45,555 nt of DNA from a virus. The stretch is taken from UHGV virus genome UHGV-2198558, one strand, 5' to 3'. Positions 2,900 through 41,582 of the stretch are shown here, in pieces. The notes under the pieces were generated by a model. That model worked only from the letters and a program-made list of their open reading frames with translations, did no database searches and was not told the DNA's origin. Both the position numbers and the translations under genes were made by a program. The first letter of the stretch is position 1, and every line of letters starts with the position of its first letter.

Positions 2900-2940
2900 G
2901 CGCTTTACTCCTTGTAAAATAGTACAATAATTTATTTTTT

Positions 2941-2969
2941 ATTATAGCACAATTGCCGCCTGTTTTCAA
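2941..2969 (-). promoter_or_regulatory. Sigma-70-type promoter for the HExxH-protein gene
   Basis: Minus strand reads TTGAAA, 17-nt spacer, TGcTATAAT, then about 35 nt to the RBS and ATG. Confidence 0.5.
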
Positions 2970-2990
2970 GCCTTTAGAGAGCGTTTTCAT

Positions 2991-3038
2991 ATAAAAACTC
3001 AGGCTCTGTGAGAAGACACTATACCTCTCACAGAGCCT
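2991..3038 (-). terminator. Rho-independent terminator after the SRAP gene; also the boundary between the AT-rich island and the prophage body
   Basis: Perfect 13-bp inverted repeat aggctctgtgaga / tctcacagagcct with a 12-nt loop; U-run on the minus strand (plus-strand aaaaa 2993-2997). Confidence 0.55.
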
Positions 3039-3045
3039 CTATTCA

Positions 3046-3681
3046 TTATACAGCCTTTTCCATCACTACCTCAGTCAAAGCCCTCTTGCATATCTCAGCA
3101 GGATTCCCGTTCGGCTTTATCCAGCTTTCAACGTCCTCTCTACTCAGTATCACCGGCATTCGGTCGTGGATGCTTCTCAGTTCCTCGGTTGCGTCCCGTG
3201 TGATTACCGCAAACACCGGGCAATTAACTCCGTTTCTCTCCTCGATCCTATACAACAGCCCAGCAAGCAGCGTAGATTCGGCTCCTTTCGGCTGTATCAG
3301 GTATTTATCGCCAACCTTCTTCTTTTTCCCGTCCGGACTCCTGAAATGCTCCCATTCAAAGTACCAACTGCTCGGAATTACGCATCTACTTCGGAACCAT
3401 GAGTCCTTCCACATTTCCTTCTGGTCAGCCGTTTCGAGGCGGCAGTTCACGATTGGAGCATCGGTCGCGTCATGACTGAAACCCCAGAGCATCGGAAAAA
3501 CTTCCATTCTTCCGTCCTTATTCGGTGCTAAAACCGCAGCAACATCAGTCGGACGCAGTTCACCGGACATAAACAGCGGTTTGCCGAGTTTTACCATGAT
3601 AGTATTCGCTAGCTCCAGTTTCTGTGCCCGTGTGATCAGCGGAGCGAACTGAGCAGGCTCTACATAGAAGCGTGTACACAT
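3046..3681 (-). CDS. SOS response-associated peptidase (SRAP / YedK / DUF159 family)
   Basis: Begins MCTRF with Cys at position 2 (family hallmark), plus a conserved HDRMPVIL segment; 211 aa. Confidence 0.8.
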   Translation of the reverse strand: MCTRFYVEPAQFAPLITRAQKLELANTIMVKLGKPLFMSGELRPTDVAAVLAPNKDGRMEVFPMLWGFSHDATDAPIVNCRLETADQKEMWKDSWFRSRCVIPSSWYFEWEHFRSPDGKKKKVGDKYLIQPKGAESTLLAGLLYRIEERNGVNCPVFAVITRDATEELRSIHDRMPVILSREDVESWIKPNGNPAEICKRALTEVVMEKAV

Positions 3682-3695
3682 AAGACCACGACCTT

Positions 3696-4253
3696 TCAGC
3701 CTTCGATCATTCTCAGCTTATAGTGTTTTCGGCAGAGTGCTGTATAACTCTCATTACCGCCGAGCTGTACCTGTTCTCCCTCTGTGACCATTTCACCGTT
3801 CAGGAGTCTTGCATTGAAGTGCGCTCTTTTGCCGCACCAGCAGATGGTCTTGATCTGCTCAATATCGTCTGCAAGCTCCATGAGCCGCTGTGCGCCGGGA
3901 AACAGATGACTCTGGAAGTCTGTCCGCAGGCCGTAGCAGATAACTGTGATGCCATGAAAATCCACAAGATCACTGAGCTTGTCTATCATTTCAGGTGACA
4001 GGAACTGCACCTCGTCAACGATGATACAGTCATAATGCTCACCATTATAGTCAGCAAGGAAGTTTTCAGCAAACTCGCAGGGTTCTTCAAGTCCGATGCG
4101 GGATTTTAGGTTCTTCGCACCGTCCCTGTCCTCGCATCTCGGCTTCAGCAGAAGCACTTTTTTGTCTCTCTCATAGTAGTTATATCGAACCATAAGCGCA
4201 TTGGCGGTCTTGGAGCTGCCCATTGCGCCGTATCTGAATATCAGTTTTGCCAT
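3696..4253 (-). CDS. tdk: Thymidine kinase
   Basis: P-loop GAMGSSKT, VDEVQF, and C-terminal zinc-binding cysteines (CWCGKRAHF...CRKH); 185 aa. GAGGAG RBS sits inside the 3' end of the repressor gene. Confidence 0.88.
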   Translation of the reverse strand: MAKLIFRYGAMGSSKTANALMVRYNYYERDKKVLLLKPRCEDRDGAKNLKSRIGLEEPCEFAENFLADYNGEHYDCIIVDEVQFLSPEMIDKLSDLVDFHGITVICYGLRTDFQSHLFPGAQRLMELADDIEQIKTICWCGKRAHFNARLLNGEMVTEGEQVQLGGNESYTALCRKHYKLRMIEG

Positions 4254-4258
4254 CTGCC

Positions 4259-5131
4259 TTACTCCTCATCGTCCTCGTGCATGACTTCATATCGCTTGAT
4301 ATCTCTCTTGCTTGCAATGGAAGCGGGTTCAAGGATACCGAGAACGCGCCCGATCAGAGTGACATTGTCATATTCTGTGAATGTCATGGTATCATACTTA
4401 TCATTAAACGATACCAGACCTTCTTCCTCATATATCTTTATGTATGTACTGTTTCCAACCATGAAAGCGCCGACCTCATCGTATTGCAGCTCCGGACAGC
4501 CGGGATACTTCTCCACAAGAACAAGGTCGCCGTCATGATACTCAGGCTCCATACTGTCGCCGTTGACAGGAAACACAAGGTCTGCCTGCCGTATTGCTGT
4601 GTTCGTATTCGGATACAGATAGATCGGTGTTCCGTTGTCCTCAAACTCCGCCCCGCCGTCAAAGCCTGCTGCAAGCCCCTTGTCGCAGAGTGTCAGTTTG
4701 ATGATCTCCGGGAAGCTGCCGACAGTCTCTGCCGCTTCAAGCGAGGATAGCAGACTGTCCATTGCAAGCTGGTGCGGATACGACAGTCCACGGTATCTCT
4801 CTACCATAGACTTTTCCTTATCAGTATAGGTATCTTGCTTGTTTTCGATGCCATATAGTTCATACAGCGTGATACCAAGTGCGTCACATAGCTTAGGAAC
4901 AACGCTGAAATCCGGGCGGGTTCTTCCGTTCTCCCAGTTACTGATAGCATTTGAGGTCACGCCGATTTTTTCTGCAATCACTTTCTGATCTAATTTTAGA
5001 CGCTCCCTGTAGTATTTGATGCGACCGCCAACCGCGTGAGCGTCCTTACGGTGGGCAGGATCAGAGATGTTACTCTTAATATCCTTGCCTCCCTGTGAGA
5101 CTGAGATATTCGGTTTCTTACGCTGTTTCAT
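4259..5131 (-). CDS. Prophage repressor, CI/LexA-like (XRE-type HTH plus S24 self-cleaving peptidase domain)
   Basis: HTH segment IKYYRERLKLDQKVIAEKIGVTSNAISNWENG; S24 motifs VNGDSMEPEY and GDLVLV. Start set to ATG 5131 (AAGGAG 9 nt upstream); the ORF-track start at 5149 is a TTG. Confidence 0.85.
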   Translation of the reverse strand: MKQRKKPNISVSQGGKDIKSNISDPAHRKDAHAVGGRIKYYRERLKLDQKVIAEKIGVTSNAISNWENGRTRPDFSVVPKLCDALGITLYELYGIENKQDTYTDKEKSMVERYRGLSYPHQLAMDSLLSSLEAAETVGSFPEIIKLTLCDKGLAAGFDGGAEFEDNGTPIYLYPNTNTAIRQADLVFPVNGDSMEPEYHDGDLVLVEKYPGCPELQYDEVGAFMVGNSTYIKIYEEEGLVSFNDKYDTMTFTEYDNVTLIGRVLGILEPASIASKRDIKRYEVMHEDDEE

Positions 5132-5291
5132 TACAAAGCTCTCCTTCAAGAATGTATGGGATAGTCAATCCTCAAAACGAACAAATATTCTTATTGAAAT
5201 CTGTGCAACCCTACAAAGTTTATCAAAGACTTTTCAACGCTGAAAACGTTAGAAATGCGAAATTTGGCGTAGGCATTGCATCTTTGATCAC

Positions 5292-5320
5292 ATTATAGCA
5301 CACAATCGGTGTTTTGTCAA
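5292..5320 (-). promoter_or_regulatory. Repressor-operon promoter (consensus sigma-70)
   Basis: Minus strand reads TTGACA, 17-nt spacer, TGcTATAAT: a perfect consensus. Confidence 0.6.
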
Positions 5321-5333
5321 TACAAAATTGCAC

Positions 5334-5362
5334 TTGCAATTCGTTTGACGGTGTGATATAAT
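5334..5362 (+). promoter_or_regulatory. Divergent rightward promoter
   Basis: TTGCAA, 17-nt spacer, TGaTATAAT; back-to-back with the repressor promoter. ATTGCA-type repeats (5274-5339) are candidate operator half-sites. Confidence 0.5.
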
Positions 5363-5563
5363 AGCAATGTCGGTATTCCGCCTACAGGAAAATGAGACCG
5401 AAGGCTGGTGCAGTGTGTCCGTCTTAAGGTGTGTGACAGGACAGACTGCCGGTCAGAGTACCGACAACTTCGCCATCAACCCACTTCGCCACGATAGATA
5501 TACAGAACAATAGAATGGAGCTAATGTTGGAAATACCATAAGTTGCGAAACAGGAGGGCGTAA

Positions 5564-7492
5564 ATGACTATATATCTTGATAGAGGACCGTTTCTCACCA
5601 TTCCCGACAAGCTGCATTCGGGGCAGTACAGAGTGATCCGCAACCCCGACTGGCACGGAGTACTGCCGGAGATCGTGTCCTTCACCGATTTTCTCAAATG
5701 GAATTACACACTGGAGTATGGTCAGTATATCCGCAAATTGCACTACTACCACCAGCTTCCGCTGCCGTGGGTCGTTCCACAGGATGCCGAGATAGAAACT
5801 GTCATCATCGAGGAAGGCAGATATGACCGCATTGATCACAATTCCTTTGATATGTATGTGATATGCGATGTCGTGTTCGAGATGAACGGCTGCCGGCAGT
5901 GCCAGAAGTATATCGTACACGGCTTTTACTGCTCTTACGGCGGTTCAGACTTTCTGTGCGGTGCGGAGCTCTACAATGGTCAGTTTATCCGGCTGAACAA
6001 TCCCTTAGATGAGTTTCTGGTTCCCATCCTTTCAAAGAAAGAATTTGCAAGCATTGCACAAGCAATCATCGACCACTACTATTCATACAAATCGAATTAT
6101 CCCTGCCGCATCAATACTGCTTCAATTGCAAAGGCAATGGGTCACGATATAAAGTATGCCAGACTGTCAAAAAACGGAAATGTCAAGTCCAAGCTGATCC
6201 TGGACAAGCGGGATACGACCGTCTATGATAAGGAATACAAAGCTGTCAAAATGCGGATCGACAGTCCTACGATCCTTGTGGACGAGTCATTGGAGGAGGA
6301 TGAAGCGCAGAACGCCATTATTCATGAGTGCGTTCACGCTTACCTTCACAACCTCTTCTATGAGCTGCAGAGCTACTATCGGAAAATGGTCGGCAGGAAG
6401 ATGCCGGAGTTCAATGACTACTTCTATTCCAAGACGCAGCGTAGCTGCCTGAAATGGATGGAAACACAGGCAAATGCCATCCCACGCTTTATTCAGATGC
6501 CGGAGGAGCAGGCATCCGATGTCATCCTGAACTTCTTCGAGCGACTCCCCGGAGAGCCTGACTGGGACGATTACAGAGAACTGATCGACCTTGTGAAATG
6601 GAAGTTCGGAGTATCCCGCAATGCTGCGAAGAAGCGTATCATTGAGCTTGGCTGGCCGGAGGTGCGCGGTGTGTATGTCTACAACACCACAGGATATGTT
6701 GAGGACTACGATGTAGAGCTAAGATTCCCGCAGGACTATACCTATACACTGTCATTCCGCCAAATCTCTGATGTGTTTGCATCCTGCGAGACCTTCGCAG
6801 AGCTTGTCCGTTCCAAGAAGTTCATCTATCTGGACGGTCATGTTGTGATCAACAGCGACAGGTATATCCGCAAGGAACACGGCTTAGCTATGGGCTTGAC
6901 AGAGTATGCTAGACACCACATGGCAGAGTGCTGTCTGGATTTCAAGCGTATCTACGCAGAATTCGACTACAGCTATACCTATGGCGAGCTACACAAGGAT
7001 GACCTGACCGAGATCACGGCCGAAAACCGTTCGTTCAGCGATGAACAGCGAAAGAAGATCCGCATGGCAATGTATGAGATCACAGAAGAAAACTATAAAC
7101 TGACCGTTCCTTCAGATGTCAACGAATTCGGCAAGGCGGTGCGTTTCCATATGGAGAGATGCGGTCTCACCTCGGATCTGGTTGCAGACCGCAGCGGCAT
7201 GGGTGTGAACACTGTCAATAAGATGCGCAGTGGCAAGAGAGTGAAGCTCGAAACAGTGCTAGCTTTTTGTGTCGCTTTGGAGCTTGAAGAGTCGTTCCGC
7301 ATTGACCTTATGCAGAAAGCGAAGGTTGATTATGATATGAGCAATCCTGCCCATCGGCTCTATGTCACGATCTTTGAGCTGATGCCGAAGGCAAATGTCT
7401 TTCAGATCAACGATCTGCTGAAGGCAGAAGGCTTTACGCCGTGGACGAGGGACTGCGAGGAAAAGAAGCGGTATGCTAAGAAAAGTATGTAA
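5564..7492 (+). CDS. Large regulatory protein: HExxH (ImmA/IrrE-like) metallopeptidase motif plus C-terminal XRE-type HTH
   Basis: 642 aa; CAGGAGGG RBS; IIHECVHAYLH motif mid-protein; C-terminal HTH (GLTSDLVADRSGMGVNTVNKMRSGKR). Confidence 0.7.
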   Translation: MTIYLDRGPFLTIPDKLHSGQYRVIRNPDWHGVLPEIVSFTDFLKWNYTLEYGQYIRKLHYYHQLPLPWVVPQDAEIETVIIEEGRYDRIDHNSFDMYVICDVVFEMNGCRQCQKYIVHGFYCSYGGSDFLCGAELYNGQFIRLNNPLDEFLVPILSKKEFASIAQAIIDHYYSYKSNYPCRINTASIAKAMGHDIKYARLSKNGNVKSKLILDKRDTTVYDKEYKAVKMRIDSPTILVDESLEEDEAQNAIIHECVHAYLHNLFYELQSYYRKMVGRKMPEFNDYFYSKTQRSCLKWMETQANAIPRFIQMPEEQASDVILNFFERLPGEPDWDDYRELIDLVKWKFGVSRNAAKKRIIELGWPEVRGVYVYNTTGYVEDYDVELRFPQDYTYTLSFRQISDVFASCETFAELVRSKKFIYLDGHVVINSDRYIRKEHGLAMGLTEYARHHMAECCLDFKRIYAEFDYSYTYGELHKDDLTEITAENRSFSDEQRKKIRMAMYEITEENYKLTVPSDVNEFGKAVRFHMERCGLTSDLVADRSGMGVNTVNKMRSGKRVKLETVLAFCVALELEESFRIDLMQKAKVDYDMSNPAHRLYVTIFELMPKANVFQINDLLKAEGFTPWTRDCEEKKRYAKKSM

Positions 7493-21500: not shown

Positions 21501-21568
21501 GAGTGTGTAAGCGACAAAGCGTGGCAAGGTCAAAATCCAATAAACAATCATACAGGAGGAACACGAAT

Positions 21569-22663
21569 ATGAGAATCATTACTTCAGAACAGGTATCCGC
21601 AGGACATCCCGACAAGATCTGTGACCAAATCGCGGATGCCATCGTGACAGACTGCCTTCAGCATGACCGCAGCAGTCGTGTTGCGATAGAGTGTCTTTTC
21701 AAGAACCGCTGTCTTGTGATCGCCGGTGAGCTGACCAGTACCCATGAGCCGGACTACAAGGCTCTGGTGCAGCAGGTGTTCGACCGTATCAACAACGGCG
21801 GAGCTGAGAACAGCGATGCGGGACTTGACTACAAGCTGGACTTCACCGCCGATGATCTGGACATTGCGATTCTGGTCGATCACCAGAGCAATGACATTGC
21901 GCTCGGTGTGAATGTCGGCGGTGCAGGAGATCAGGGTATGATGTACGGCTATGCGACCAACGAAACGCCGGAGATGCTCCCGATCCCCTTCGTGCTGGCT
22001 ACCAGATTTCTGGAACTGCTGAAAGCCTACCCCTGCCGTATGCTGAAAGCCGATGCAAAGGCACAGGTCAGCTATGACTATGACAGCGGTCGCATTACCA
22101 CCTTCCTCTGCTCGGTGCAGCATACACACGATGTGGATGTTGAGGACTTCAAGCCCATCATCGAAAAGCTGATGGTGAGAACGGCAACCGAATACGGGCT
22201 GAATACAGACTTTGCAAAGCTCGTCAACCCGACCGGCAGATTTGTCATAGGCAGTTCCTTTGCGGACTGCGGCGTTACCGGACGCAAGCTCGCCTGCGAT
22301 ACCTATGGCGGTATCGGGCATATCGGCGGCGGTGCAATGTCCGGCAAAGATCCGTCTAAGGTTGACCGCAGCGGCGCATATGCAGCAAGAAAAATCGCAA
22401 GGGATATCGTCAGCGCCGGATATTCAGACAAGGCAGAGGTGCAGATCGCATACGCCATCGGTGTGGCAGAGCCCGTATCCGTGTATGTAGAGACTTTTGG
22501 CACGGAGCATCAGGATACGGAGTTCATCAACCAGTATGTTCGTGAGAATTATGACCTCACGCCGAGGGGAATCATCGAAGGGCTGCATCTGCTCGATGTG
22601 GACTATAACGCCATTTCCGCATACGGACACTTCGGAAAACAGAACCTTCCGTGGGAACTATAA
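21569..22663 (+). CDS. metK: S-adenosylmethionine synthetase
   Basis: Collinear with bacterial MetK: SAGHPDKICDQIAD, GAGDQGMMYGYA, DTYGG, GGGAMSGKDPSKVDRSGAYAARKIA; GGAGGA RBS before ATG 21569. Confidence 0.88.
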   Translation: MRIITSEQVSAGHPDKICDQIADAIVTDCLQHDRSSRVAIECLFKNRCLVIAGELTSTHEPDYKALVQQVFDRINNGGAENSDAGLDYKLDFTADDLDIAILVDHQSNDIALGVNVGGAGDQGMMYGYATNETPEMLPIPFVLATRFLELLKAYPCRMLKADAKAQVSYDYDSGRITTFLCSVQHTHDVDVEDFKPIIEKLMVRTATEYGLNTDFAKLVNPTGRFVIGSSFADCGVTGRKLACDTYGGIGHIGGGAMSGKDPSKVDRSGAYAARKIARDIVSAGYSDKAEVQIAYAIGVAEPVSVYVETFGTEHQDTEFINQYVRENYDLTPRGIIEGLHLLDVDYNAISAYGHFGKQNLPWEL

Positions 22664-22689
22664 TAAATTTTTTGAAATTTTTTTTGATT

Positions 22690-22733
22690 GGATACCCACA
22701 AAATGCCCTCTCCCACGACAGTATATGAGGGGC
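22690..22733. repeat. Copy 2 of the 44-bp intergenic repeat
   Basis: ggatacccacaaaatgccctctcccacgacagtatatgaggggc; hairpin preserved through an A-U to G-U change. Confidence 0.6.
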
Positions 22734-22826
22734 GTTGTTCAGACCGACCACAAACACACTACAAACCAAGCGGGACTGACCGCCCCTATCACTATGCAAC
22801 ACCACTGTGGAAAGGAGGCAGAGACA

Positions 22827-23186
22827 ATGCCAAGCAGACCAAAAACACCATGCAGACACCCCGGCTGTGCTGCGCTCGTACCTTATGGCACCAAGTATTG
22901 TGACAAGCACCGTTCTCTCCATCCGGAGGACACACGCTCCGCAGGCAGTCGAGGCTATGGCACCACATGGAACAAGACCCGCAAGCGTTACCTTGAGACG
23001 CATCCGCTGTGCGTGGAGTGCATGAAGCAAGGGCGCTATATCAAGGCGACCGATGTCGATCACATCATGCCGCACCGAGGAGACAATGTTCTCTTCTGGG
23101 ATCAGAGCAACTGGCAGAGCCTCTGCCACCGACACCACAGCATCAAGACCCGAAATGAGGATCACACCCCCGAGTACAAGTACTAA
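22827..23186 (+). CDS. HNH endonuclease (small phage type)
   Basis: AAAGGAGG RBS; CRHPGC...CDKH...PLCVEC...DVDHIMP...N.QSLC..HH pattern; 119 aa. Confidence 0.8.
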   Translation: MPSRPKTPCRHPGCAALVPYGTKYCDKHRSLHPEDTRSAGSRGYGTTWNKTRKRYLETHPLCVECMKQGRYIKATDVDHIMPHRGDNVLFWDQSNWQSLCHRHHSIKTRNEDHTPEYKY

Positions 23187-23644
23187 ACGCAAGCCACACT
23201 CACTATCGTTGCAGTTCAGGCAGTCTCAGGGGTGTACCTATGGGCGGGGCTGGGGGCTGGGGTTGCCCGCCGGGGCGGGTTCACTTCTCTGTGTGAAAGC
23301 GAACACAAGACCGTCGGCCCCTCTCGTGTGAAAAAACGCGAATTTGCAAGGGCCCCGGTCATTTGGGACCCTGACAGAGATATATTAGCTGTAAATGAAA
23401 TACTGTGCAGAAAACAGAAAACGCAGATTTTTCGTGCTTTTCCATATGCTGCCGTAGGAAACTGCGGCGGCAGGATACATACAGAGTTTCGTTACAAAAT
23501 GCACTGTAAAACGGCGAATTTACGTCAAAAAGCGATAGAATTAGCACATTTTTAGCGCCAAACCGCATTTTACAGTTTTATTCTTGGCGGAGCCCGTGTG
23601 GATACCGAAAACCGCATAAAATCAGAAGTTTCGAGGTGAATCAG

Positions 23645-23950
23645 ATGACAGATTCTCAAAAATATCAAGTACGAATTATGCGGATGCAGGGCATTGGATA
23701 TAAGGCAATAGCAAGGTCGCTGGGCTTGAAAACCAATCAGGTGCAGCTCTTTTGCAAGGCTCACGGTCTTGCAGGAGACAATCATCTGGTCGATGTCAAC
23801 TATCAAATCTGGTGTCAGCAAAACAACCGCTGTCCGGTCTGCGGTGCAAAGGTCACCCAGCCGAGGACAGGACGGCGAAAACGCTTCTGTTCCGGACGGT
23901 GCAGAACAAGATATTATCGTGAAAAACTGGAGGAATCAAAATGCTTGTAA
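23645..23950 (+). CDS. Small DNA-binding protein (HTH plus C-terminal zinc ribbon)
   Basis: HTH-like QVRIMRMQGIGYKAIARSLGLKTNQVQ; CPVCG...CSGRC. Start ATG 23645 (or GTG 23636). Confidence 0.55.
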   Translation: MTDSQKYQVRIMRMQGIGYKAIARSLGLKTNQVQLFCKAHGLAGDNHLVDVNYQIWCQQNNRCPVCGAKVTQPRTGRRKRFCSGRCRTRYYREKLEESKCL

Positions 23951-24097
23951 CCGTTTTGTGCCTTACTTACATGATGATCATCATCCTGATCCATGCGATC
24001 TGGATATCTTCGATCATCAAGCATGACGGGAAATGCCACTACAACGACTGCGGTCACTGTCCGTATGACGCCTGGTGTCCGATGCAGGAGGAAAAAC

Positions 24098-24583
24098 ATG
24101 ACACTGACAGAGAACTTCATTCGTGATGCGATACAGCTTGACAGCGGTGCAGAGGTCATGTACGGCAGCGATCAGATCTATGACACCTACCCCTGCCGCT
24201 TTCCGACTGTCGAGTTCCAGCTCATGGCAACGGATGCACTTGCGGAGGTCGCAGACCGCATCCGAATGGAGAAAGGCTATCTCCCGATGCATCCGAGGGA
24301 CGGGCGCACGGACGATGTTGACAATGACGGCTGGTACGACTTTTATATCGGGATTAGCAAGCTCCCCAGCGATCATAAGGAATGCAAACTTGACAGCAGC
24401 ATTAGTTTCGTGGTCGTCAATTCAGATTCCGATGACAACGAGGATATGTACAGCATTGACCTGACTGAAACAGAGCAGGCGTATGTGTATGAAATACTGA
24501 ACCGGCAATGCCGGAGATATCACGGGAAGGACTGTGCCACGCTTCTGGCAGAGTCTGAAAAGGAGCTGATGGATACAGCATGA
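24098..24583 (+). CDS. Hypothetical protein
   Basis: AGGAGGA RBS before ATG 24098; 161 aa; stop overlaps the nrdD start. Confidence 0.55.
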   Translation: MTLTENFIRDAIQLDSGAEVMYGSDQIYDTYPCRFPTVEFQLMATDALAEVADRIRMEKGYLPMHPRDGRTDDVDNDGWYDFYIGISKLPSDHKECKLDSSISFVVVNSDSDDNEDMYSIDLTETEQAYVYEILNRQCRRYHGKDCATLLAESEKELMDTA

Positions 24584-26721
24584 GGATAATAAAACGAAAC
24601 GGCGCTGAGGTGCCGTATGACTGCGAAAAGATACGAGCCGCAATATCAGCGGCAAATGATGAAGTGCCGGAGAAGATATCAGATACAGTGATCGGATTCA
24701 TTGTCGGGAATGTAGAAAAACGCTGTCATGCCCTTGCAAGACCTGTCCATGTCGAAGAAGTCCAGGACATGGTTCTTGATGAACTGGACAAGGCCGAGGC
24801 TTACAAACTTGCACGGCACTACAGTGAGTACCGCCTGTGGCATGAGCAGCAGCGCCGTATGAACACCACCGACGGCAAGATTCTCAGTCTGCTGGAACGC
24901 AACAACGAGGAGGCAAAGCAGGAGAACGCCAACAAGAACCCCATCATCAACAGCACGCTCCGTGACTATATGGCGGGAGAAGTCAGTCGGGATATATGTC
25001 GGCGCTTCCTGTTTCCGGAGGATGTGATCGCCGCCCATGATGACGGCATCATTCATGTGCATGACCTCGACTACATCGCAGAGCCGATGCACAATTGCTG
25101 TCTGGTGAATCTGGAGGATATGCTTCAAAACGGCACAGTGGTATCCGGTACTATGATTGAGAAGCCGCACAGCTTTTCGACTGCCTGCAATATCGCAACG
25201 CAGATCATTGCACAGGTGGCATCAAATCAGTACGGCGGACAGACGGTATCTCTGGCACATCTTGCGCCTTTCGTGGATATCAGCCGACAGAAAATTCGTG
25301 CCGAGGTGTTCGAGGATGTGAACTGCGACTGCGGTGCAAAGCTGTCTGAAAAAGAACTGGACTACATCGTAGAAAAGCGCGTGCGACGGGAAGTCAAGCG
25401 AGGCGTACAAACGATCCAGTATCAGATCAACACGCTCCTGACAACCAACGGTCAGACACCGTTCGTGACGGTATTCATGTATCTGGACGAGGCACCGGAG
25501 GGACAGACCAGAGATGACCTTGCACTCATTATCGAGGAAACGCTGCTTCAGCGTATCGAGGGCGTGAAAAACGAGAAGGGCGTGTGGATCACACCGGCAT
25601 TCCCGAAGCTGATCTATGTTCTCGATGAGGACAACATTCAGCCCGGTTCCAAGTATTACTACCTCACCGAGCTTGCGGCGAAGTGTACCGCAAAGCGTAT
25701 GGTTCCCGACTATATTTCCGCAAAGGTGATGAAACGTCTGAAGGGTGATGTGTATGCCTGCATGGGCTGCCGGTCATTCCTGACACCTTCTGCCGACCAC
25801 AAATACTACGGCAGATTCAATCAGGGAGTCGTCACGATCAACCTTGTGGATGTTGCGTGTAGCGCAGGCGGAGACGAAGATAAATTCTGGCAGCTTCTTG
25901 ATGAACGCTGCGAACTGTGCCGCAAGGCTCTGATGTGCAGGCATGAACGTCTGAAAGGTACGCCGTCCGATGTTGCACCGATCCTCTGGCAGTATGGCGC
26001 ACTTGCGAGACTGAAGAACGGTGAGGTCATTGACAATTTGCTGTATAACAACTACAGCACGATCTCCCTCGGCTATGCCGGCATCGCGGAAATGACCTAC
26101 CGCATGACAGGCTGTTCGCATACAGAGTCGGAGGGAAAATCCTTCGCCATTTCAGTGATGCATTTTCTGAACGATAAGTGCAGCAAATGGAGAGCTGAAA
26201 GCAATATCTCGTTCTCGCTATACGGCACGCCGATGGAATCTGTGACCTACAAATTTGCAAAGTGTCTGCAAAGGCGGCATGGTATTATTCCGCACGTCAC
26301 GGACAGGAGCTACATTACCAACAGCTATCATGTCCATGTGACAGAGCCGATCGACGCCTTCAGCAAGTTGTCCTTTGAAGCGGAGTTTCAGGAGCTTTCT
26401 CCCGGCGGTGCGATTTCGTATGTAGAAGTGCCGAACCTTCAGAACAACATTCCTGCGGTTCTGGCACTCATGAAACACATTTACGAAACGATTTTATATG
26501 CTGAACTCAACACTAAGTCCGACTACTGTCAGGCTTGTGGCTATGACGGGGAGATGCAGATCGTGGAAGAGGACGGCAAGCTGATCTGGGAATGCCCGAA
26601 CTGCGGCAACCGTGACCAGCGGACAATGAATGTCTGCCGCCGCACCTGCGGATATCTCGGAACGCAGTTCTGGAATCAAGGGCGCACACAGGAGATCGCA
26701 GAAAGGGTGATGCACCTGTGA
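24580..26721 (+). CDS. nrdD: Anaerobic ribonucleoside-triphosphate reductase
   Basis: N-terminal ATP-cone; C-terminal zinc ribbon CQACG...CPNCG; glycyl-radical motif RRTCGYLG; 713 aa. Confidence 0.88.
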   Translation: MRIIKRNGAEVPYDCEKIRAAISAANDEVPEKISDTVIGFIVGNVEKRCHALARPVHVEEVQDMVLDELDKAEAYKLARHYSEYRLWHEQQRRMNTTDGKILSLLERNNEEAKQENANKNPIINSTLRDYMAGEVSRDICRRFLFPEDVIAAHDDGIIHVHDLDYIAEPMHNCCLVNLEDMLQNGTVVSGTMIEKPHSFSTACNIATQIIAQVASNQYGGQTVSLAHLAPFVDISRQKIRAEVFEDVNCDCGAKLSEKELDYIVEKRVRREVKRGVQTIQYQINTLLTTNGQTPFVTVFMYLDEAPEGQTRDDLALIIEETLLQRIEGVKNEKGVWITPAFPKLIYVLDEDNIQPGSKYYYLTELAAKCTAKRMVPDYISAKVMKRLKGDVYACMGCRSFLTPSADHKYYGRFNQGVVTINLVDVACSAGGDEDKFWQLLDERCELCRKALMCRHERLKGTPSDVAPILWQYGALARLKNGEVIDNLLYNNYSTISLGYAGIAEMTYRMTGCSHTESEGKSFAISVMHFLNDKCSKWRAESNISFSLYGTPMESVTYKFAKCLQRRHGIIPHVTDRSYITNSYHVHVTEPIDAFSKLSFEAEFQELSPGGAISYVEVPNLQNNIPAVLALMKHIYETILYAELNTKSDYCQACGYDGEMQIVEEDGKLIWECPNCGNRDQRTMNVCRRTCGYLGTQFWNQGRTQEIAERVMHL

Positions 26722-27185
26722 ATTACTGCGGTCTGAATAAAAACGATATTGCCAACGGTGAAGGTGTGCGTGTGTCGCTGTTCGTGTCCGGATGCCGGAA
26801 TCACTGCATCGGCTGTCACAATCCCGAAGCATGGGATTTCGGCTACGGTCAGCCGTTTACCAAAGAAACCGAAAAAGAGATCATCGAAGCCCTGCGTCCT
26901 TCTTGGATACAGGGCATTTCTATACTCGGCGGTGAACCCTGCGAGGAGGAAAACGAGCGTGTTCTGATACCGTTTCTGAAACGGATAAAACTTGAGTCTC
27001 CGAATTCGGACACTTGGCTGTTCTCCGGATACACCTACGAAATGCTTCAGAATGATGAGATTCTCAAATACATTGATGTGCTTGTGGACGGGCCGTTCCT
27101 GATGGAACAGAAGAACATCTCCCTTGCATTCCGGGGCAGTCGGAATCAACGAATCCTCCGATTAAGAAATGGGGTGCGTGTATGA
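26718..27185 (+). CDS. nrdG: Anaerobic RNR activating protein (radical SAM)
   Basis: CRNHCIGCHN (CxxxCxxC) near the N-terminus; GTG start overlapping the nrdD stop. Confidence 0.82.
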   Translation: MNYCGLNKNDIANGEGVRVSLFVSGCRNHCIGCHNPEAWDFGYGQPFTKETEKEIIEALRPSWIQGISILGGEPCEEENERVLIPFLKRIKLESPNSDTWLFSGYTYEMLQNDEILKYIDVLVDGPFLMEQKNISLAFRGSRNQRILRLRNGVRV

Positions 27186-27499
27186 GAGCCAGACTGAAAC
27201 CGCCGGGAGATGCTGTCCGCTGCGATGCCTGCGGATGTGCCTTTGTGCCGGAGCCGAAAATGCAGCGTGAGGGAGAGATCGAATACAGCTTCCTCAACTG
27301 TGATTACTGTGGCAAAGCGTATATCGTGTCTGTGACCGATGCCGCACTCCGCCGGAGCATCCGCAAGTACCGGACGCTTGCCGAAAAGCTGAAGGGCAAG
27401 CCGTTGAGTGAAGATACGCTCCGTGAGGTCACGGCGCTGAAGGATGCGAACACAAAAAGAGCCGCAGAGCTGCGGCAGATGTATATTCGGGAGGGATGA
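27182..27499 (+). CDS. Hypothetical zinc-ribbon protein
   Basis: CDACGC...CDYCGK; ATG overlaps the nrdG stop. Confidence 0.5.
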   Translation: MRARLKPPGDAVRCDACGCAFVPEPKMQREGEIEYSFLNCDYCGKAYIVSVTDAALRRSIRKYRTLAEKLKGKPLSEDTLREVTALKDANTKRAAELRQMYIREG

Positions 27500-27500
27500 G

Positions 27501-28772
27501 ATGAAAACAGCAGAACTTCGCATGATCCCTGTCTCGGAGCTGAAGCCTGCGGAATACAATCCGCGTAAAAAGCTGAAGCCCGGCGACAAGGAATACGAGA
27601 AGATCAAAAACAGCATCGAGGAATTCGGCTTTGCCGACCCGCTTGTTGTCAACGCCGACATGACGATCATCGGCGGACACCAGAGACTGACCGTAGCAAC
27701 GGCGCTCGGTTACACGGAAGTTCCGTGTGCGGTGGTGGACATCGACAAAGTCCGTGAGAAGGCACTGAACATTGCGCTGAATAAGATCACGGGTGCATGG
27801 GACGAGAATCTTCTGGCGGAACTTCTCGAAGATATCCAGAGCAGCGATTTCGACCTCGGCAAGACCGGCTTTGATCCGCCGGAGATCGAGCAGCTTTTCA
27901 ATGCCGTTCATGACAAGCAGGTCAGTGAGGACAGCTTCGATGTGGAGGAGGAGCTGCAAAAGCCGACATTCTCGCAGCCGGGAGATATCTGGATTCTCGG
28001 CAGGCACAAAGTCATCTGCGGCGATAGTACAATCGCAGAGACATACACCAAGCTGATGGACGGGCAGAAGGCAAACCTCGTCCTGACCGATCCTCCGTAC
28101 AATGTGGATGTTGAGGAAACTGCCGGAAAGATCATGAATGACAACATGAGCGACAGTGATTTCTATAGCTTCCTGCTTTCCGCTTACAAGTGTATGTATG
28201 ACAGTCTTGCCGATGACGGCAGCATTTATGTATGGCACGCCGACACCGAGGGGCTGAACTTCCGCAGAGCGTTCAAGGAGGCAGGCTTCCAGCTTTCTGG
28301 CTGCTGTATCTGGAAGAAGAATTCTCTGGTGCTGGGCAGAAGCCCCTATCAGTGGATTCATGAGCCGTGTCTCTTCGGGTGGAAACAGAAGGGCAAGCAT
28401 CAGTGGTATGCCGACCGCAAGCAGACAACTGTATGGGAGTATGACAAGCCCAAGAGCAGCCCCGATCATCCGACCACAAAGCCTATCCCGCTGATGGCGT
28501 ACCCGATCAAGAACAGCACCATGACCAACGGCATCGTTCTCGATCCGTTCCTCGGCAGCGGTTCGACACTGATCGCCTGTTGCGAGACAGACCGTGTTTG
28601 TCGGGGCATCGAGCTTGATCCGAAGTTCGTGGATGTCATTGTCAAGAGGTATCTGGCATGGTGCCAAGAGAAGCAGACCGCCGAGGTCGCATATGTCATT
28701 CGTGATGGACAGAAGCTCACCTATGAGGAGGCTATCGCAGCGATGCCGCAGGGCGGTGATGCAGTTGAGTGA
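27501..28772 (+). CDS. ParB-like nuclease domain fused to a DNA methyltransferase (N6-adenine/N4-cytosine class)
   Basis: N-terminal ParB-like segment (PAEYNPR...IIGGHQR); methyltransferase motif IV TDPPY and motif I DPFLGSGST; GGGAGGG RBS. Confidence 0.82.
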   Translation: MKTAELRMIPVSELKPAEYNPRKKLKPGDKEYEKIKNSIEEFGFADPLVVNADMTIIGGHQRLTVATALGYTEVPCAVVDIDKVREKALNIALNKITGAWDENLLAELLEDIQSSDFDLGKTGFDPPEIEQLFNAVHDKQVSEDSFDVEEELQKPTFSQPGDIWILGRHKVICGDSTIAETYTKLMDGQKANLVLTDPPYNVDVEETAGKIMNDNMSDSDFYSFLLSAYKCMYDSLADDGSIYVWHADTEGLNFRRAFKEAGFQLSGCCIWKKNSLVLGRSPYQWIHEPCLFGWKQKGKHQWYADRKQTTVWEYDKPKSSPDHPTTKPIPLMAYPIKNSTMTNGIVLDPFLGSGSTLIACCETDRVCRGIELDPKFVDVIVKRYLAWCQEKQTAEVAYVIRDGQKLTYEEAIAAMPQGGDAVE

Positions 28773-29544
28773 TGTGAAGTGTGTATTATATCACGACAAC
28801 TTCCAAAACTTCAAAGGCTACAGCATCCCGAAAGCGCAGCTCGTCATCGCTGACATCCCGTACAACATCGGCGGCGATTTTTACGCAAGCCGCCCCGACT
28901 GGTATGTGGACGGTGACAATCAGAACGGCGAAAGCAGCAAAGCACATAAGGCGGCATTCCATACAGATTACAGCTTTAACATTGCTGAATACTTCGCCTT
29001 CTGCAACCGACTGCTCAAAAAAGAGCCGCCAAAAGGTGAAAAGGATGCGCCGTGCATGATCGTGTTCTGTGCCTTTCAGCAGATACCGGAAGTCATCCGG
29101 CAGGCGGAGAAATACGGCTTCAAGAAGTATCAGTTTTTGTGTTTTATGAAGAATTACAGTCCGCAGGTGTTGAAGGCGAACATGAGGATCGTGGGCGCAA
29201 CGGAATACGCTCTGGTGCTGTACCGGGGCAAGCTGCCGAAATTCCGAAACACGGATGAGAATGGCAAACACCACATGATCTTCGACCATTTTGACTGGAT
29301 GCGGGACGGCAAGGATATCCCGAAGATACATCCTTCGCAGAAGCCGGTAAATCTCCTGAAACGGCTGATCGGGATATTTACCGACGAGGGTGATGTGGTC
29401 ATCGATCCCTGCGCCGGTTCCGGCTCAACGCTGCGTGCGGCGAGGGAGCTTGGCAGACACAGCTACGGCTTTGAAGTCAGCCGGGATTTTTATAATAAAG
29501 CCTGTGAACTGATGCTTGGGGAGGATACCGATGACGAAGCATGA
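28759..29544 (+). CDS. Second DNA methyltransferase (N6-adenine/N4-cytosine class)
   Basis: ADIPYNIG (DPPY-like) and IDPCAGSGST (motif I); start overlaps the previous gene. Confidence 0.72.
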   Translation: MQLSDVKCVLYHDNFQNFKGYSIPKAQLVIADIPYNIGGDFYASRPDWYVDGDNQNGESSKAHKAAFHTDYSFNIAEYFAFCNRLLKKEPPKGEKDAPCMIVFCAFQQIPEVIRQAEKYGFKKYQFLCFMKNYSPQVLKANMRIVGATEYALVLYRGKLPKFRNTDENGKHHMIFDHFDWMRDGKDIPKIHPSQKPVNLLKRLIGIFTDEGDVVIDPCAGSGSTLRAARELGRHSYGFEVSRDFYNKACELMLGEDTDDEA

Positions 29545-29776
29545 ATGTGCGGTCGTGACCGCTTACACAGAGATTTCTATGCTCAAGGGCGACGATCTGA
29601 AATATCTGTATGACTATCTTTCCGGCTTTATCGGCAGACCGGTGTATACACACGAGATTTCTGCTGTGGTGATGGCTTACAGAGAGCAGATCAGGGAGGA
29701 CTTCCTCGATCTGTGCAGGAACGCAAAGGAGGCGGATGATGGATCAGAAACACTTGACTCTCGGCAGCTTATTTGA
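29531..29776 (+). CDS. Hypothetical small protein
   Basis: GGGGAGGA RBS before ATG 29531; overlaps flanking methyltransferase genes. Confidence 0.4.
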   Translation: MTKHECAVVTAYTEISMLKGDDLKYLYDYLSGFIGRPVYTHEISAVVMAYREQIREDFLDLCRNAKEADDGSETLDSRQLI

Positions 29777-32339
29777 CGGCTCCGGTGGCTTTCCGCTTGG
29801 CGGCATCCTTGCAGGGATCGAGCCGAAGTGGAGCAGCGAAATTGAACCATTCCCGGTGCTTGTCACGCACAAGCGGCTGCCGCAGGTGAAGCACTACGGC
29901 GATGTATCCAAACTGAACGGAGCAGAGCTTCCGCCGGTGGATATCATCACCTTCGGCAGCCCGTGTCAGGATCTGTCCATAGCGGGCAAGCGCGCCGGAA
30001 TCCATGACGGTGATCGGTCAAACCTGTTCTTTCAGGCGATCCGCATCATCAAAGAAATGAGGGATGCAACAAATGGACGATATCCGCGATACTGCGTCTG
30101 GGAAAATGTCCCCGGCGCTTTCTCATCCAACGGAGGAAACGACTTCAAGGCTGTCCTCGAAGCAGTTATCGGAGTTAAAGAAAAAGGGATCGAGGTGCCT
30201 GCGCCTGAAAATCACAGATGGGCAAAATCAGACGTATATCTGGGAGACGGATGGAGCGTGGCTTACCGAGTTTTCGATGCTCAATACTGGGGTGTCCCCC
30301 AACGCAGAGCAAGAATCTACCTTGTCGCAGATCTTGCTGGTGGAAGTGCCGGAGAAGTATTATTTAAGTCCGAAGGCGTGTCTGGGTATACTCCGCAGGG
30401 CTTCCGTGCGTGGCAAGGAGCTGCCGGAGGTGCTGAAGAAGGCACTGGAGAGACAGGCGGGCGGTCTGACGCTGGAGGTGGAACCCTCTGCCTGAATACA
30501 CAGGGCAACAGCGGCGTCGGCATCACCGAGAACAAGGCTCTCGCACTGGTCGCACAGGATCATGGCAATCATCCGGCTGTGCTTCATGCGGTCGGTATCG
30601 ACGGCTACAATGCTGCGGTCACCGATGATACGGCAGCAACGCTTGGTGTGAACTGCGGAATGTCCACAGGCAGAAACGGTGTCCTGCAGGCGGCGGGATT
30701 TTCCACAGAACACAGTGCAAAAGCAAGGAGCATCGGCTACGAGGAAGAGGTATCTCCCACACTTCGAGCCGGTGTTGTTCCGGCGGCAATGGAGTTATAT
30801 GAAAATCATGGGCAGGACAGCAGATTCAGAGGACCTTTGGATGTAGCACAGCCTGTGACTGCTACCTACGGCATGGGCGGCAACAATCAGCCGCTTGTGG
30901 TAGAGAACAATCCCACGGACGGCAGAGCGAAGATCAATCCCGACGGTGTGTTTCAGACGCTCTGCGGACGAGCCGGAACAGGCGGAAACAACACGCCGCT
31001 TGTTGCTGAACCGGTCACGCTGAAAATCAGGTCGGGATGTGAGGGCGGTGGCAAGGGTGCTTTATGGCAGACCGACAAGTCTGCTACGCTCGGCACAAAC
31101 AATGACCAGAGTGTATTTGTTCCGTTCGTCAAGGGAACACGTCCGCACTCTGCTGAAGAGGGGCAAACATGGAAACCCGGCGAGGTCGCCAATACACTGA
31201 ATACCTTTGATGTCGGTGAAAGTCGCTGCAATGAACTTGTGGTGGAAGAGCCGCAGATCAGGGCTTTCGGTGTATGCAGCAAGCATTCCAATGCGATGAT
31301 GTCCGACAATCCGCACAGCGGATTCTATGAGGCGACCACAAGCAGAACGCTCGACCAAAGTGGTGGAAATTCTGTGACATCGAATCAGGGCGGCATCTGC
31401 GTGGTAGCACCTGCGCCTGAAACCTTCGATGTGCGTTTCACATCAGACGGTACAAAAAACGCTCGTGGGCATTGCTATCCGACAGACATCTCCCGATGCC
31501 TTGATACGAGCGAGGGATCGCCAGACTCGAATCACGGCGGTGTCGCTGTGGTGGCTCTTGAACCGGGGGCTGCATCACGTGTCGGCGGTCATGTATACAG
31601 TGACGGCAAAAGCGGTACGCTTCGAGCCAATGCCGGCGATAATCAGCAGGCTGTTGTGGTCGCCGAGCCGGAGACCTATGCTCTGCAAGGCTCGATGATC
31701 GGTCGTGCCGACAAGAACGGTCCGCAGGGTGATGGCATCAACGAGGATGTGTGCTTTACGCTCAATACATCGGACAGACACGCCATTGCCGCACCTGATC
31801 CGTCCTTCACAATTTCCCGCGACAACCATTTTGCCGTTTCGGAGGATGTATCCGTTACAGCCGTGGCAAGAGGCCCTGCGGCAGTCGCAGCACCGGCAGA
31901 CCACTATTGCACCAGTAAGAATTCGCATCATACGGTCGCCGCCCATGAGCAGGCAAACACGCTGGTCGCTTCCGACTGGAAGGATCCGCCGCTTGTGAAC
32001 GACCTTCCGAATGACGAGCCAGTATATATCGTTCGCCGCTTGACTCCGGTTGAGTGCGCCAGATTGCAGGGATTCCCTGACTGGTGGTGTGCCGACCTTG
32101 CAATTACTGATCCTTCCGATGAGGAGATCGCCTTCTGGACGGAGGTCTGGGAGACATGGCGGCAGGTCACAAATCCCAAGGGCAAGCCGAAAACGGAAAA
32201 GCAGATCCGCAAATGGCTGGCTGATCCGTACACGGATTCAGCGGAGTACAAGCTGTGGGGCAACGGTGTCTCAGAGCCGGTCGTATACTTCGTGCTTTCC
32301 GGCATCGCATGGGCAGCGCAGAGAGATACACAAAAGTGA
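29736..32339 (+). CDS. C5-cytosine DNA methyltransferase with an unusually long, repetitive target-recognition region
   Basis: Motif I LFDGSGGF, motif IV GSPCQDLSIAGKR, motif VI ENVPGA, motif X RRLTPVECARLQGFPDWW; about 550 aa between motifs VIII and IX with at least 8 TL-type motifs; 867 aa. Confidence 0.85.
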   Translation: MMDQKHLTLGSLFDGSGGFPLGGILAGIEPKWSSEIEPFPVLVTHKRLPQVKHYGDVSKLNGAELPPVDIITFGSPCQDLSIAGKRAGIHDGDRSNLFFQAIRIIKEMRDATNGRYPRYCVWENVPGAFSSNGGNDFKAVLEAVIGVKEKGIEVPAPENHRWAKSDVYLGDGWSVAYRVFDAQYWGVPQRRARIYLVADLAGGSAGEVLFKSEGVSGYTPQGFRAWQGAAGGAEEGTGETGGRSDAGGGTLCLNTQGNSGVGITENKALALVAQDHGNHPAVLHAVGIDGYNAAVTDDTAATLGVNCGMSTGRNGVLQAAGFSTEHSAKARSIGYEEEVSPTLRAGVVPAAMELYENHGQDSRFRGPLDVAQPVTATYGMGGNNQPLVVENNPTDGRAKINPDGVFQTLCGRAGTGGNNTPLVAEPVTLKIRSGCEGGGKGALWQTDKSATLGTNNDQSVFVPFVKGTRPHSAEEGQTWKPGEVANTLNTFDVGESRCNELVVEEPQIRAFGVCSKHSNAMMSDNPHSGFYEATTSRTLDQSGGNSVTSNQGGICVVAPAPETFDVRFTSDGTKNARGHCYPTDISRCLDTSEGSPDSNHGGVAVVALEPGAASRVGGHVYSDGKSGTLRANAGDNQQAVVVAEPETYALQGSMIGRADKNGPQGDGINEDVCFTLNTSDRHAIAAPDPSFTISRDNHFAVSEDVSVTAVARGPAAVAAPADHYCTSKNSHHTVAAHEQANTLVASDWKDPPLVNDLPNDEPVYIVRRLTPVECARLQGFPDWWCADLAITDPSDEEIAFWTEVWETWRQVTNPKGKPKTEKQIRKWLADPYTDSAEYKLWGNGVSEPVVYFVLSGIAWAAQRDTQK

Positions 32340-41108: not shown

Positions 41109-41582
41109 ATGGCTCAGAGAGGCAGAAAACCGACGCCGACAGCAATCAAGGAACTGGAAGGCAATCCCGGAAAACGACCGCTGAATGATGCAGAGCCGAA
41201 GCCGGAACGCAAGGCACCGCCCTGTCCGAAGTGGCTGGAGCCCGAAGCAAAAAAGGAATGGCGCAGGCTGTCAAAGCAACTGGAGCAGATTGGTGTGCTG
41301 ACCGAGGTCGATCAGGCGGCATTCGCATCCTACTGTCAGGCATACGCACGATGGAAAGAAGCCGAGGAATTCATGACCCAGCACGGCACGATCGTAAAAA
41401 CAAAATCAGGTTACTGGCAGCAGGTTCCGCAGGTATCCATTGCGCAAACTTATCTGAAGATCATGAACAAGATCGCAGAGCAGTTTGGCCTGACCCCGGC
41501 GGCAAGAAGCCGTATCACTGCCGGCGCAGATATGAAAAACGCTGCCGTTGACGATATGGATGAACTTCTCGGAGGTGGCTGA
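41109..41582 (+). CDS. terS: Terminase small subunit (P27-family-like)
   Basis: MAQRGRKPTPTAIKELEGNPGKRPLN N-terminus; AAGGAG RBS 8 nt before ATG 41109; stop overlaps the terL start. Confidence 0.8.
   Translation: MAQRGRKPTPTAIKELEGNPGKRPLNDAEPKPERKAPPCPKWLEPEAKKEWRRLSKQLEQIGVLTEVDQAAFASYCQAYARWKEAEEFMTQHGTIVKTKSGYWQQVPQVSIAQTYLKIMNKIAEQFGLTPAARSRITAGADMKNAAVDDMDELLGGG

Follow-up and report, generated by a model that had tools for sequence, protein, structure and literature searches.

In the PRM operon of phage lambda, cI-rexA-rexB, a self-cleaving helix-turn-helix (HTH) repressor of the S24 type comes first and shares its transcript with the cargo behind it, which serves phage exclusion; a divergent lytic promoter is located a few tens of bp away. 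Here we describe a locus of similar layout in the UHGV virus genome UHGV-2198558, a stretch of 45,555 nucleotides that is called the window throughout. As read from open reading frames (ORFs) and Pfam matches, the minus strand of the window carries, in this order, genes for an S24-type immunity repressor, a thymidine kinase (tdk), and a protein of the SRAP family, which would share one transcript. The cargo differs from that of lambda: it consists of tdk together with SRAP or, in relatives, a translesion polymerase. We consider it probable that these genes form an operon for immunity (lysogeny maintenance) in a temperate phage of the Ruminococcus flavefaciens group, built on the cI-rexAB design and furnished with cargo for damage tolerance and thymidine supply.

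Several other mobile elements offer parallels. In the SXT/R391 integrative and conjugative elements (ICEs), SetR, an ortholog of CI, acts with CroS to control rumAB, which encodes a Pol V-like polymerase (PMC8460599); there, as is proposed for the window, a CI-type S24 repressor of the element governs a damage-tolerance or mutagenesis function that the element itself bears. The rumAB genes of R391 form an operon of their own, which is repressed in trans and is under LexA as well (PMC8460599), whereas the cargo of the window sits in the repressor's own operon and includes tdk and SRAP, a polymerase being found in sister phages only. The name SRAP refers to an association with operons of LexA, UmuCD, DinB, and ImuB, and the family has been noted in temperate phages such as SPBc2 (PMC3765255); prophage polymerases of the UvrX type with YolD partners are established for yolD-uvrX of SPbeta (PMC6511836). 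SPbeta/SPBc2, Burkholderia prophages, and the phages S1 and pAN resemble our locus in having SRAP or UvrX-type Y-family polymerases as accessory genes (PMC3765255, PMC6511836), but none of these has been reported together with tdk. What has been described already, then, are SRAP and translesion polymerases in prophages, SRAP in LexA operons, SOS-type genes on prophages and ICEs, and cargo on repressor operons; an incomplete search of the literature found no paper on a repressor-tdk-SRAP or repressor-tdk-polymerase operon, or on this lineage of Ruminococcus phages. A further parallel is ICEBs1, whose immR-immA(-int) operon puts the immunity repressor and further genes of the element under one autoregulated promoter, which faces away from the transfer genes. 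One relative of the window, L037, is alike in having an XRE repressor and an ImmA-type protease as a pair ahead of a polymerase gene, a gene for a 132-aa protein, and tdk. The window itself differs from ICEBs1, since its repressor is of the S24 type and has no ImmA partner on its own strand; an M78 domain is found instead in the divergent 642-aa gene.

The preliminary description of this DNA had placed the three genes under a perfect consensus promoter, separated by gaps of 5 and 14 nt, with the tdk ribosome-binding site inside the repressor gene and a shared terminator downstream. All of these elements were reproduced (Table 1). The repressor promoter, P(rep), is the sole 12/12 match to the sigma-70 consensus in the 45.5-kb window and has the TG extension in addition; just one other site, at 2969-2941, scores at least 11/12. 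The -35, -10, and TG elements of P(rep) are kept across all immunity groups of the relatives. The shorter gap, between repressor and tdk, occupies 4254-4258 and the longer one, between tdk and SRAP, 3682-3695, and the acidic C-terminal tail of the repressor, which encodes the tdk ribosome-binding site, is kept in relatives. The terminator hairpin begins 7 nt past the SRAP stop codon and consists of a perfect 15-bp stem followed by a U-run (-30.2 kcal/mol, z = -6.97); no further terminator was found on the minus strand between 5150 and 3046. In short, the cargo directly follows the repressor on the same strand, a single promoter and a single terminator bracket the genes, and a lytic promoter diverges from them, as befits an operon of repressor plus cargo. 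Its expression signals set it apart from lambda, where PRM is weak and activator-dependent and gives a leaderless transcript, whereas P(rep) is a perfect consensus and the repressor mRNA would have a leader of about 150 nt.

Table 1. Coordinates in the window of the repressor operon, its expression signals, and the adjoining switch region
Feature	Position	Strand	Description
SRAP protein (YedK/HMCES family), 211 aa	3046-3681	-	PF02586, 5.7e-34
Thymidine kinase (tdk), TK1 type, 185 aa	3696-4253	-	PF00265, 9.8e-41, full length
Immunity repressor, 290 aa	4259-5131	-	XRE-type HTH (about residues 38-92), linker, S24 domain
Ribosome-binding site of tdk, GAGGAG	4262-4267	-	Formed by the final pair of Glu codons in the repressor gene; 8 nt ahead of the ATG of tdk
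Intrinsic terminator of the operon	2991-3038	-	Hairpin 3038-3001, T-run to about 2991
P(rep), sigma-70/sigma-A consensus promoter	5292-5320	-	TTGACA(5320-5315)-17-TGcTATAAT(5300-5292), extended -10 of the TRTG type
Repressor mRNA 5' untranslated region, predicted, about 150 nt	5132-5285	-	Transcription start predicted from the position of the -10 box
Divergent lytic-side promoter	5334-5362	+	TTGCAA-17-TGaTATAAT, 10/12 plus TG
Palindrome AATTGCA-CT-TGCAATT	5326-5341		Over the -35 box of the lytic promoter; holds two of three ATTGCA sites
Lytic transcript leader, about 200 nt	5363-5563	+	Kept across heteroimmune phages; part of the switch region, not of the operon
First lytic-strand gene, 642 aa	5564-7492	+	M78 (ImmA/IrrE-like, HExxH) domain and C-terminal HTH

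Relatives were sought with the repressor and with tdk, and IMG/VR and genomes both yielded the same lineage. In about 25 non-redundant contigs, tdk comes after an S24 repressor on the same strand; together with the single strong promoter and the single terminator, this conserved order upholds the proposed three-gene operon. The repressors represent at least four immunity types, with identities to that of the window of 93-82%, about 70%, about 49%, and about 28% (groups A to D are referred to below), and the identity of tdk stays at 82-92% across these types. Behind tdk lies SRAP (74-79% identity) in 11 contigs plus the window, and a cassette encoding a 97-aa protein, a 540-aa Y-family polymerase (Pfam IMS, 4.8e-27; IMS_C, 1.8e-7), and a 160-aa protein in 12 contigs. 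The SRAP and polymerase cassettes each combine with several immunity types. Both cargoes stand in a single string on the metagenomic contig L114 (repressor-p96-polymerase-161aa-TK-SRAP), and L006 is without tdk and retains the polymerase cassette. The presence of a Y-family polymerase in the position of SRAP strengthens the link that had been claimed between the immunity gene and DNA-damage functions. The 160-aa protein and its 132-aa counterpart in L037 are YolD-like by position and size only; Pfam gave no support for their membership of the YolD family (PF08863), with no match even at E <= 5. Three loci look like remnants. In L036 (5780-10976) the repressor is intact, and tdk, the polymerase cassette, and a 280-aa Thr-rich lipoprotein-like gene are also present, but just 25 codons of the 642-aa gene are left and no other phage genes lie within 5.8 kb; L057 (7415-8266) and L059 (7601-8452) have a truncated tdk and a frameshifted SRAP.

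These data suggest the following scheme. The consensus sigma-A promoter would drive one mRNA that comprises a leader of some 150 nt, the repressor, tdk, and SRAP and ends at the strong intrinsic terminator, with tdk coupled via the ribosome-binding site that lies within the final codons of the repressor gene. The repressor would be the master repressor of the phage, set back to back with the lytic promoter and diversified into at least four heteroimmune types. tdk and SRAP would be conserved cargo, expressed whenever the repressor is transcribed, as rexA and rexB ride on lambda cI, and so presumably in lysogens as well. The cargo slot would be devoted to damaged or thymine-starved DNA: tdk would salvage thymidine and SRAP would shield abasic sites, and in sister phages the Y-family translesion polymerase cassette would either replace SRAP or join it. 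The physiological benefit could be a lower load of damage and perhaps a dampened signal for spontaneous induction.

Several points weigh against the proposed immunity operon. We infer co-transcription of the repressor, tdk, and SRAP from their tight spacing and the lack of detectable internal signals, and a weak promoter-like site (9/12) does lie inside tdk, at 4132-4103. In some relatives there are insertions between the genes, namely a 280-aa gene in L036, a gap of about 270 nt in L003, and one of 1.1 kb in L017, and the cargo in such genomes could have signals of its own. The promoter-like site and the insertions would both suit three independent transcription units that merely abut. We nevertheless regard such an arrangement as very improbable, given gaps of only a few nucleotides, a ribosome-binding site inside the upstream gene, no internal terminator, one strong promoter and one strong terminator, and an order and strand that are invariant across the contigs. 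Two further points concern the phage as a whole: no integrase was found among the scanned ORFs of the window, so that the case for integration comes solely from relatives in bacterial genome assemblies, and operators in the window's own immunity group could not be defined by comparison. Finally, one host metagenome-assembled genome (MAG) has a tdk of its own (on L038). In that host the phage tdk therefore adds no new capability, which weakens the simple argument that the cargo confers a new function.

The repressor had been called LexA-like, a name that fits one part of the protein and not the other. It has an S24 autopeptidase domain (Peptidase_S24, PF00717, 3.2e-13), but its DNA-binding domain is an XRE/Cro-C1 HTH like that of lambda CI or 434 (HTH_3, 2.3e-15). 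In the N-terminal part the Pfam scan gave only XRE-type HTH families and not the LexA winged-helix domain (PF01726); comparison with PDB sequences matched the HTH to the 434, P22 C2, and ICEBs1 repressor structures, with no LexA chain among the matches to the repressor. Judged by its domains, the protein is of lambda-CI/434 architecture and not a member of the LexA family. The ORF as called spans 4259-5149, but translation most likely begins with the ATG at 5131, given that relatives open with MKQ(R/H)KK and lack any upstream extension and that GGAGAG is found 7 nt ahead of this codon. The linker contains a cleavage motif, LAAGF, in which Ala155-Gly156 stands 38 residues ahead of Ser193, and the Ser-Lys dyad, assigned by motif, comprises Ser193 in GDSM and Lys232 in YIKIY, 39 residues apart. 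The AAG cleavage motif is kept in groups A-D, and Ser193 and Lys232 are kept in all relatives. Self-cleavage of the repressor would be expected to be stimulated by RecA.

Both cargo proteins have the residues expected of their families. The tdk product aligns with solved bacterial TK1-type enzymes and has the P-loop GAMGSSKT (residues 9-16), the motif DEVQF with Glu81, and a zinc site of C138, C140, C174, and H177, whose ligands follow the variant pattern C-x-C...C-x-x-H. SRAP begins with MCTRF, so that Cys2, the position of the nucleophile, comes directly after the initiator Met, and its residues N79, E109, and H172 align with the catalytic residues of E. coli YedK in INARVE, FEW, and IHDR; it is predicted to shield abasic sites in single-stranded DNA (ssDNA) through a covalent thiazolidine cross-link. 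Both genes are under strong purifying selection. The ratio of nonsynonymous to synonymous divergence (dN/dS) ranges from 0.04 to 0.09 in tdk and is about 0.06 in SRAP, and synonymous divergence (dS) is saturated in both, implying that the two genes are old, functional residents of the operon. A defence role for tdk or SRAP was also considered and rejected, as PADLOC gave no meaningful matches.

Elsewhere, the two genes are found in other settings. Few phages have SRAP (matches at E <= 1e-8 in 18 of 50,697 phage records); in Stenotrophomonas phage S1 and Pseudomonas phage pAN it is a stand-alone moron adjoining the integrase, outside any repressor operon, and distant SRAPs (53-57% identity) do not adjoin S24 repressors. 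We found tdk in 1,710 phage records, mostly of T4-like and jumbo phages, and phage tdk is overwhelmingly a trait of large virulent phages. Among the tdk homologues examined, linkage to a repressor was observed in this phage lineage only: the distant homologues, from Butyrivibrio/Lachnospiraceae (56-68%) and Actinobacteria (about 40%), have no neighboring repressor, SRAP, or polymerase. The chromosomal tdk of the host MAG, at 8001-8567 of L038, is 83% identical to the phage gene, and its neighbors are housekeeping genes (for endonuclease V, a serpin, an M50 peptidase, and an ECF sigma factor); the same MAG also holds two related prophages, L031 and L033. The phage tdk appears to be related to this host gene and to duplicate a function present in that host. 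Because dS between the two is near 2, their split was not recent.

The frequency of tdk in virulent phages would fit another account of the cargo, in which it serves lytic replication. tdk would feed dTTP synthesis, SRAP or the polymerase would handle lesions, which could come from host glycosylase or deaminase defences, P(rep) would act mainly early after infection or induction, and expression in the lysogen would be incidental. In keeping with this, the phage is rich in genes of nucleotide and DNA metabolism (NrdD, MetK, PolA, and three methyltransferases), and antiviral glycosylases are known to generate abasic sites (PMC11078745). However, the rest of the genes for replication and nucleotide metabolism are all on the lytic strand, whereas tdk and SRAP are always directly behind the repressor, in every immunity type, and other temperate phages keep SRAP in the integrase-proximal moron region and not among their lytic genes. 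We think this lytic role quite unlikely.

As candidate operators, the preliminary description had proposed ATTGCA repeats that overlap the divergent promoters. The facing promoter was confirmed; its -35 box lies 13 bp from that of P(rep), and it is kept in all immunity groups. The repeats, by contrast, did not hold up. Copies at 5275, 5327, and 5335 (reverse strand) form a local cluster of three within 66 bp, but two of the three are -35-like TTGCA sequences, and window-wide the hexamer is not enriched (31 found vs 40 expected). Eight phages of the window's group align gap-free over 170 bp and share the recognition helix TSNAISNWE, yet the three positions vary among them, and in L003 all three sites are altered, to GGTACA, AACACA, and TGAAAT. 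We therefore rejected the repeats as operators. The left arm of the palindrome that holds two of them is not kept among relatives with an identical recognition helix either, and a manual search found no dyad common to both promoters of the window's immunity group. An operator candidate better than any from the window's own group comes from group C (L024, L027, L031, and L036), where the divergent promoters are inverted duplicates over 20 nt sharing TTGACATTTTCGTGATAATG, each with an imperfect palindrome of 16 bp, CATTATCACGAAAATG. Because the group C promoters are mirror copies, whatever site the repressor has within the core of the lytic promoter would recur in P(rep). Negative autoregulation of P(rep) is plausible, since the promoter is intrinsically strong.

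Autoregulation raises the further possibility that the phage has a small SOS regulon of its own, in which the strong P(rep) is autorepressed and RecA-stimulated cleavage raises transcription of the operon, making the cargo damage-induced rather than merely expressed in the lysogen. Lambda PRM depends on an activator, but a perfect consensus with an extended -10 has no need of one; both the cleavage site and the catalytic dyad of the S24 repressor are intact; and the symmetry of the group C promoters would bring P(rep) under the repressor that holds the lytic promoter. The cargo consists of classic SOS-type functions (PMC3765255, PMC6511836), and the scheme, which has the logic of lexA and its regulon, has a precedent in the repression of rumAB by SetR (PMC8460599). 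But in the window's own group no operator was identified, and the window's two promoters are not mirror copies; moreover, the repressor would be cleaved just when its mRNA would rise, and a need for the cargo at that time is a supposition. We view damage induction of the operon as a tentative possibility, and one we doubt.

Thymine starvation and unrepaired gaps are classical RecA-activating, prophage-inducing conditions, and the cargo could therefore buffer the induction signal. Taken to its full extent, this would make the locus a self-contained SOS-like module of the phage: CI-type autorepression would be joined to RecA-triggered cleavage that boosts the cargo, and the cargo would remove the ssDNA and thymine-starvation signals that activate RecA, buffering the threshold of induction. 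Such a complete loop of negative feedback on prophage induction strikes us as unlikely.

The leader of the repressor mRNA points to a different potential regulator. A Cheo-box-like element, GAACAAATATTC, lies there at 5179-5190, with a single mismatch and without overlapping any promoter. Through this element the host LexA might co-control the operon, tying it to the host SOS regulon. The position of the element is the same in groups A, B, and C, the consensus across phages is a perfect GAAC-N4-GTTC (GAACAAATGTTC), and the GAAC-N4-ATTC variant resembles weak natural LexA boxes in Bacillus. Against this, every individual phage has one or two mismatches, sites with at most one mismatch occur in the window at chance level (15 found vs 17.9 expected), and the element is absent from group D. 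In addition, it lies about 100 nt downstream of the promoter, with no second promoter nearby (nothing of at least 9/12 inside the leader), and the box was judged against GAAC-N4-GTTC. Overall, control by host LexA seems to us improbable.

The same leader contains a 28-nt block, CTACAAAGTTTATCAAAGACTTTTCAAC, at 5211-5238, which is invariant in 8/8 group-A phages and largely retained in B and C. It is unique in the window and was rejected as a repeated regulatory motif, having one occurrence. A riboswitch or other structured RNA in the leader was rejected as well, because the fold is not significant (z = -0.34) and there is no Rfam match within 2900-5700.

If co-transcription holds, a whole lineage of Ruminococcus phages from the rumen has firmly coupled lesion tolerance and the salvage of thymidine to the gene of the lysogeny/lysis decision, and has done so with tdk in an unusual phage setting, the gene being otherwise found mainly in large virulent phages. 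The locus would be a tractable system for asking whether prophages tune the DNA-damage signal that induces them, and whether prophage SRAP and translesion polymerases alter the survival and mutation rates of key fibre-degrading rumen bacteria. As the components and the general idea are in the literature, the advance is incremental unless the feedback model is true.

On the lytic side of the switch, the transcript leader probably folds into a structured RNA, behind which comes a tandem ACTTCGCCA repeat. Within 5363-5490, GGTATTC (5373-5379) and GAGTACC (5456-5463) are predicted to pair in a closing helix, with an inner hairpin around AAGGTGTGTG; among 10 sequences, double compensatory changes occur in 5 of the 15 predicted pairs. 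The leader has no Rfam family match, and no terminator was found ahead of the 642-aa gene. The tandem ACTTCGCCA repeat (5467-5491, plus strand), with a spacing of 16 nt, is nearly invariant in groups A-C and is the recombination junction of the mosaic L027, in which the repressor is of group C and the 642-aa gene of group A. As L027 and a second mosaic, L040, show, the immunity cassette that moves as one piece consists of the repressor with both promoters and roughly 100 nt from the start of the lytic leader, and the 642-aa gene, which is kept in relatives, reassorts independently of repressor type. This gene occupies the place of the small Cro, the first lytic gene of lambda. Its M78 match is borderline (22.1 bits vs a cut-off of 22), and the protein could be an anti-repressor protease, a Cro analogue, or both.

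The window is a phage of the Ruminococcus flavefaciens group. Relatives lie in R. flavefaciens 007c, where the repressor operon is 90% identical (L029), in Ruminococcus sp. XPD3002, and in many MAGs of rumen Ruminococcus/Oscillospiraceae; their presence within bacterial genomes and the phage gene set of the window bear out the temperate context that had been proposed. Among sequenced phages, no relatives closer than two short nucleotide matches of about 70% identity, in uncultured faecal phages, were found. To the right of the switch, the plus strand encodes a set for phage replication and packaging that includes a DUF2800 nuclease, an Enc34-type ssDNA-binding protein, a family-A polymerase (PolA), and DUF932, as well as an SNF2 helicase, a D5-type primase-helicase, and the large terminase (TerL). 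The region 21503-32339 of this lytic strand (plus) has genes for an SAM synthetase (MetK), the anaerobic ribonucleotide reductase NrdD, and three DNA methyltransferases, namely a ParB-N6/N4 methylase, a second N6/N4 methylase, and an 867-aa C5 methylase; these make up a sizeable auxiliary complement for nucleotide metabolism and DNA modification. The large terminase (41582-44248, plus strand) has ATPase and nuclease domains and, in its N-terminal half, a LAGLIDADG_3 domain, which suggests an intein or a fused homing endonuclease.

Directly past the operon terminator, the minus strand carries a separate cargo unit (78-2969) whose GC content is lower, at 0.38-0.43. The second-best promoter of the window, TTGAAA-17-TGnTATAAT (2969-2941), precedes a 365-aa ORF without a family match, which is followed by a 503-aa HATPase_c_3 protein that matches PADLOC MzaB (2.3e-92). 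This region looks like a defence hot-spot: at the same position there is BREX in L036 and a C5 methylase with a SacI-like nuclease in L114, and an ORF of L001 resembles a type I HsdM fragment, by its N-terminal sequence only.

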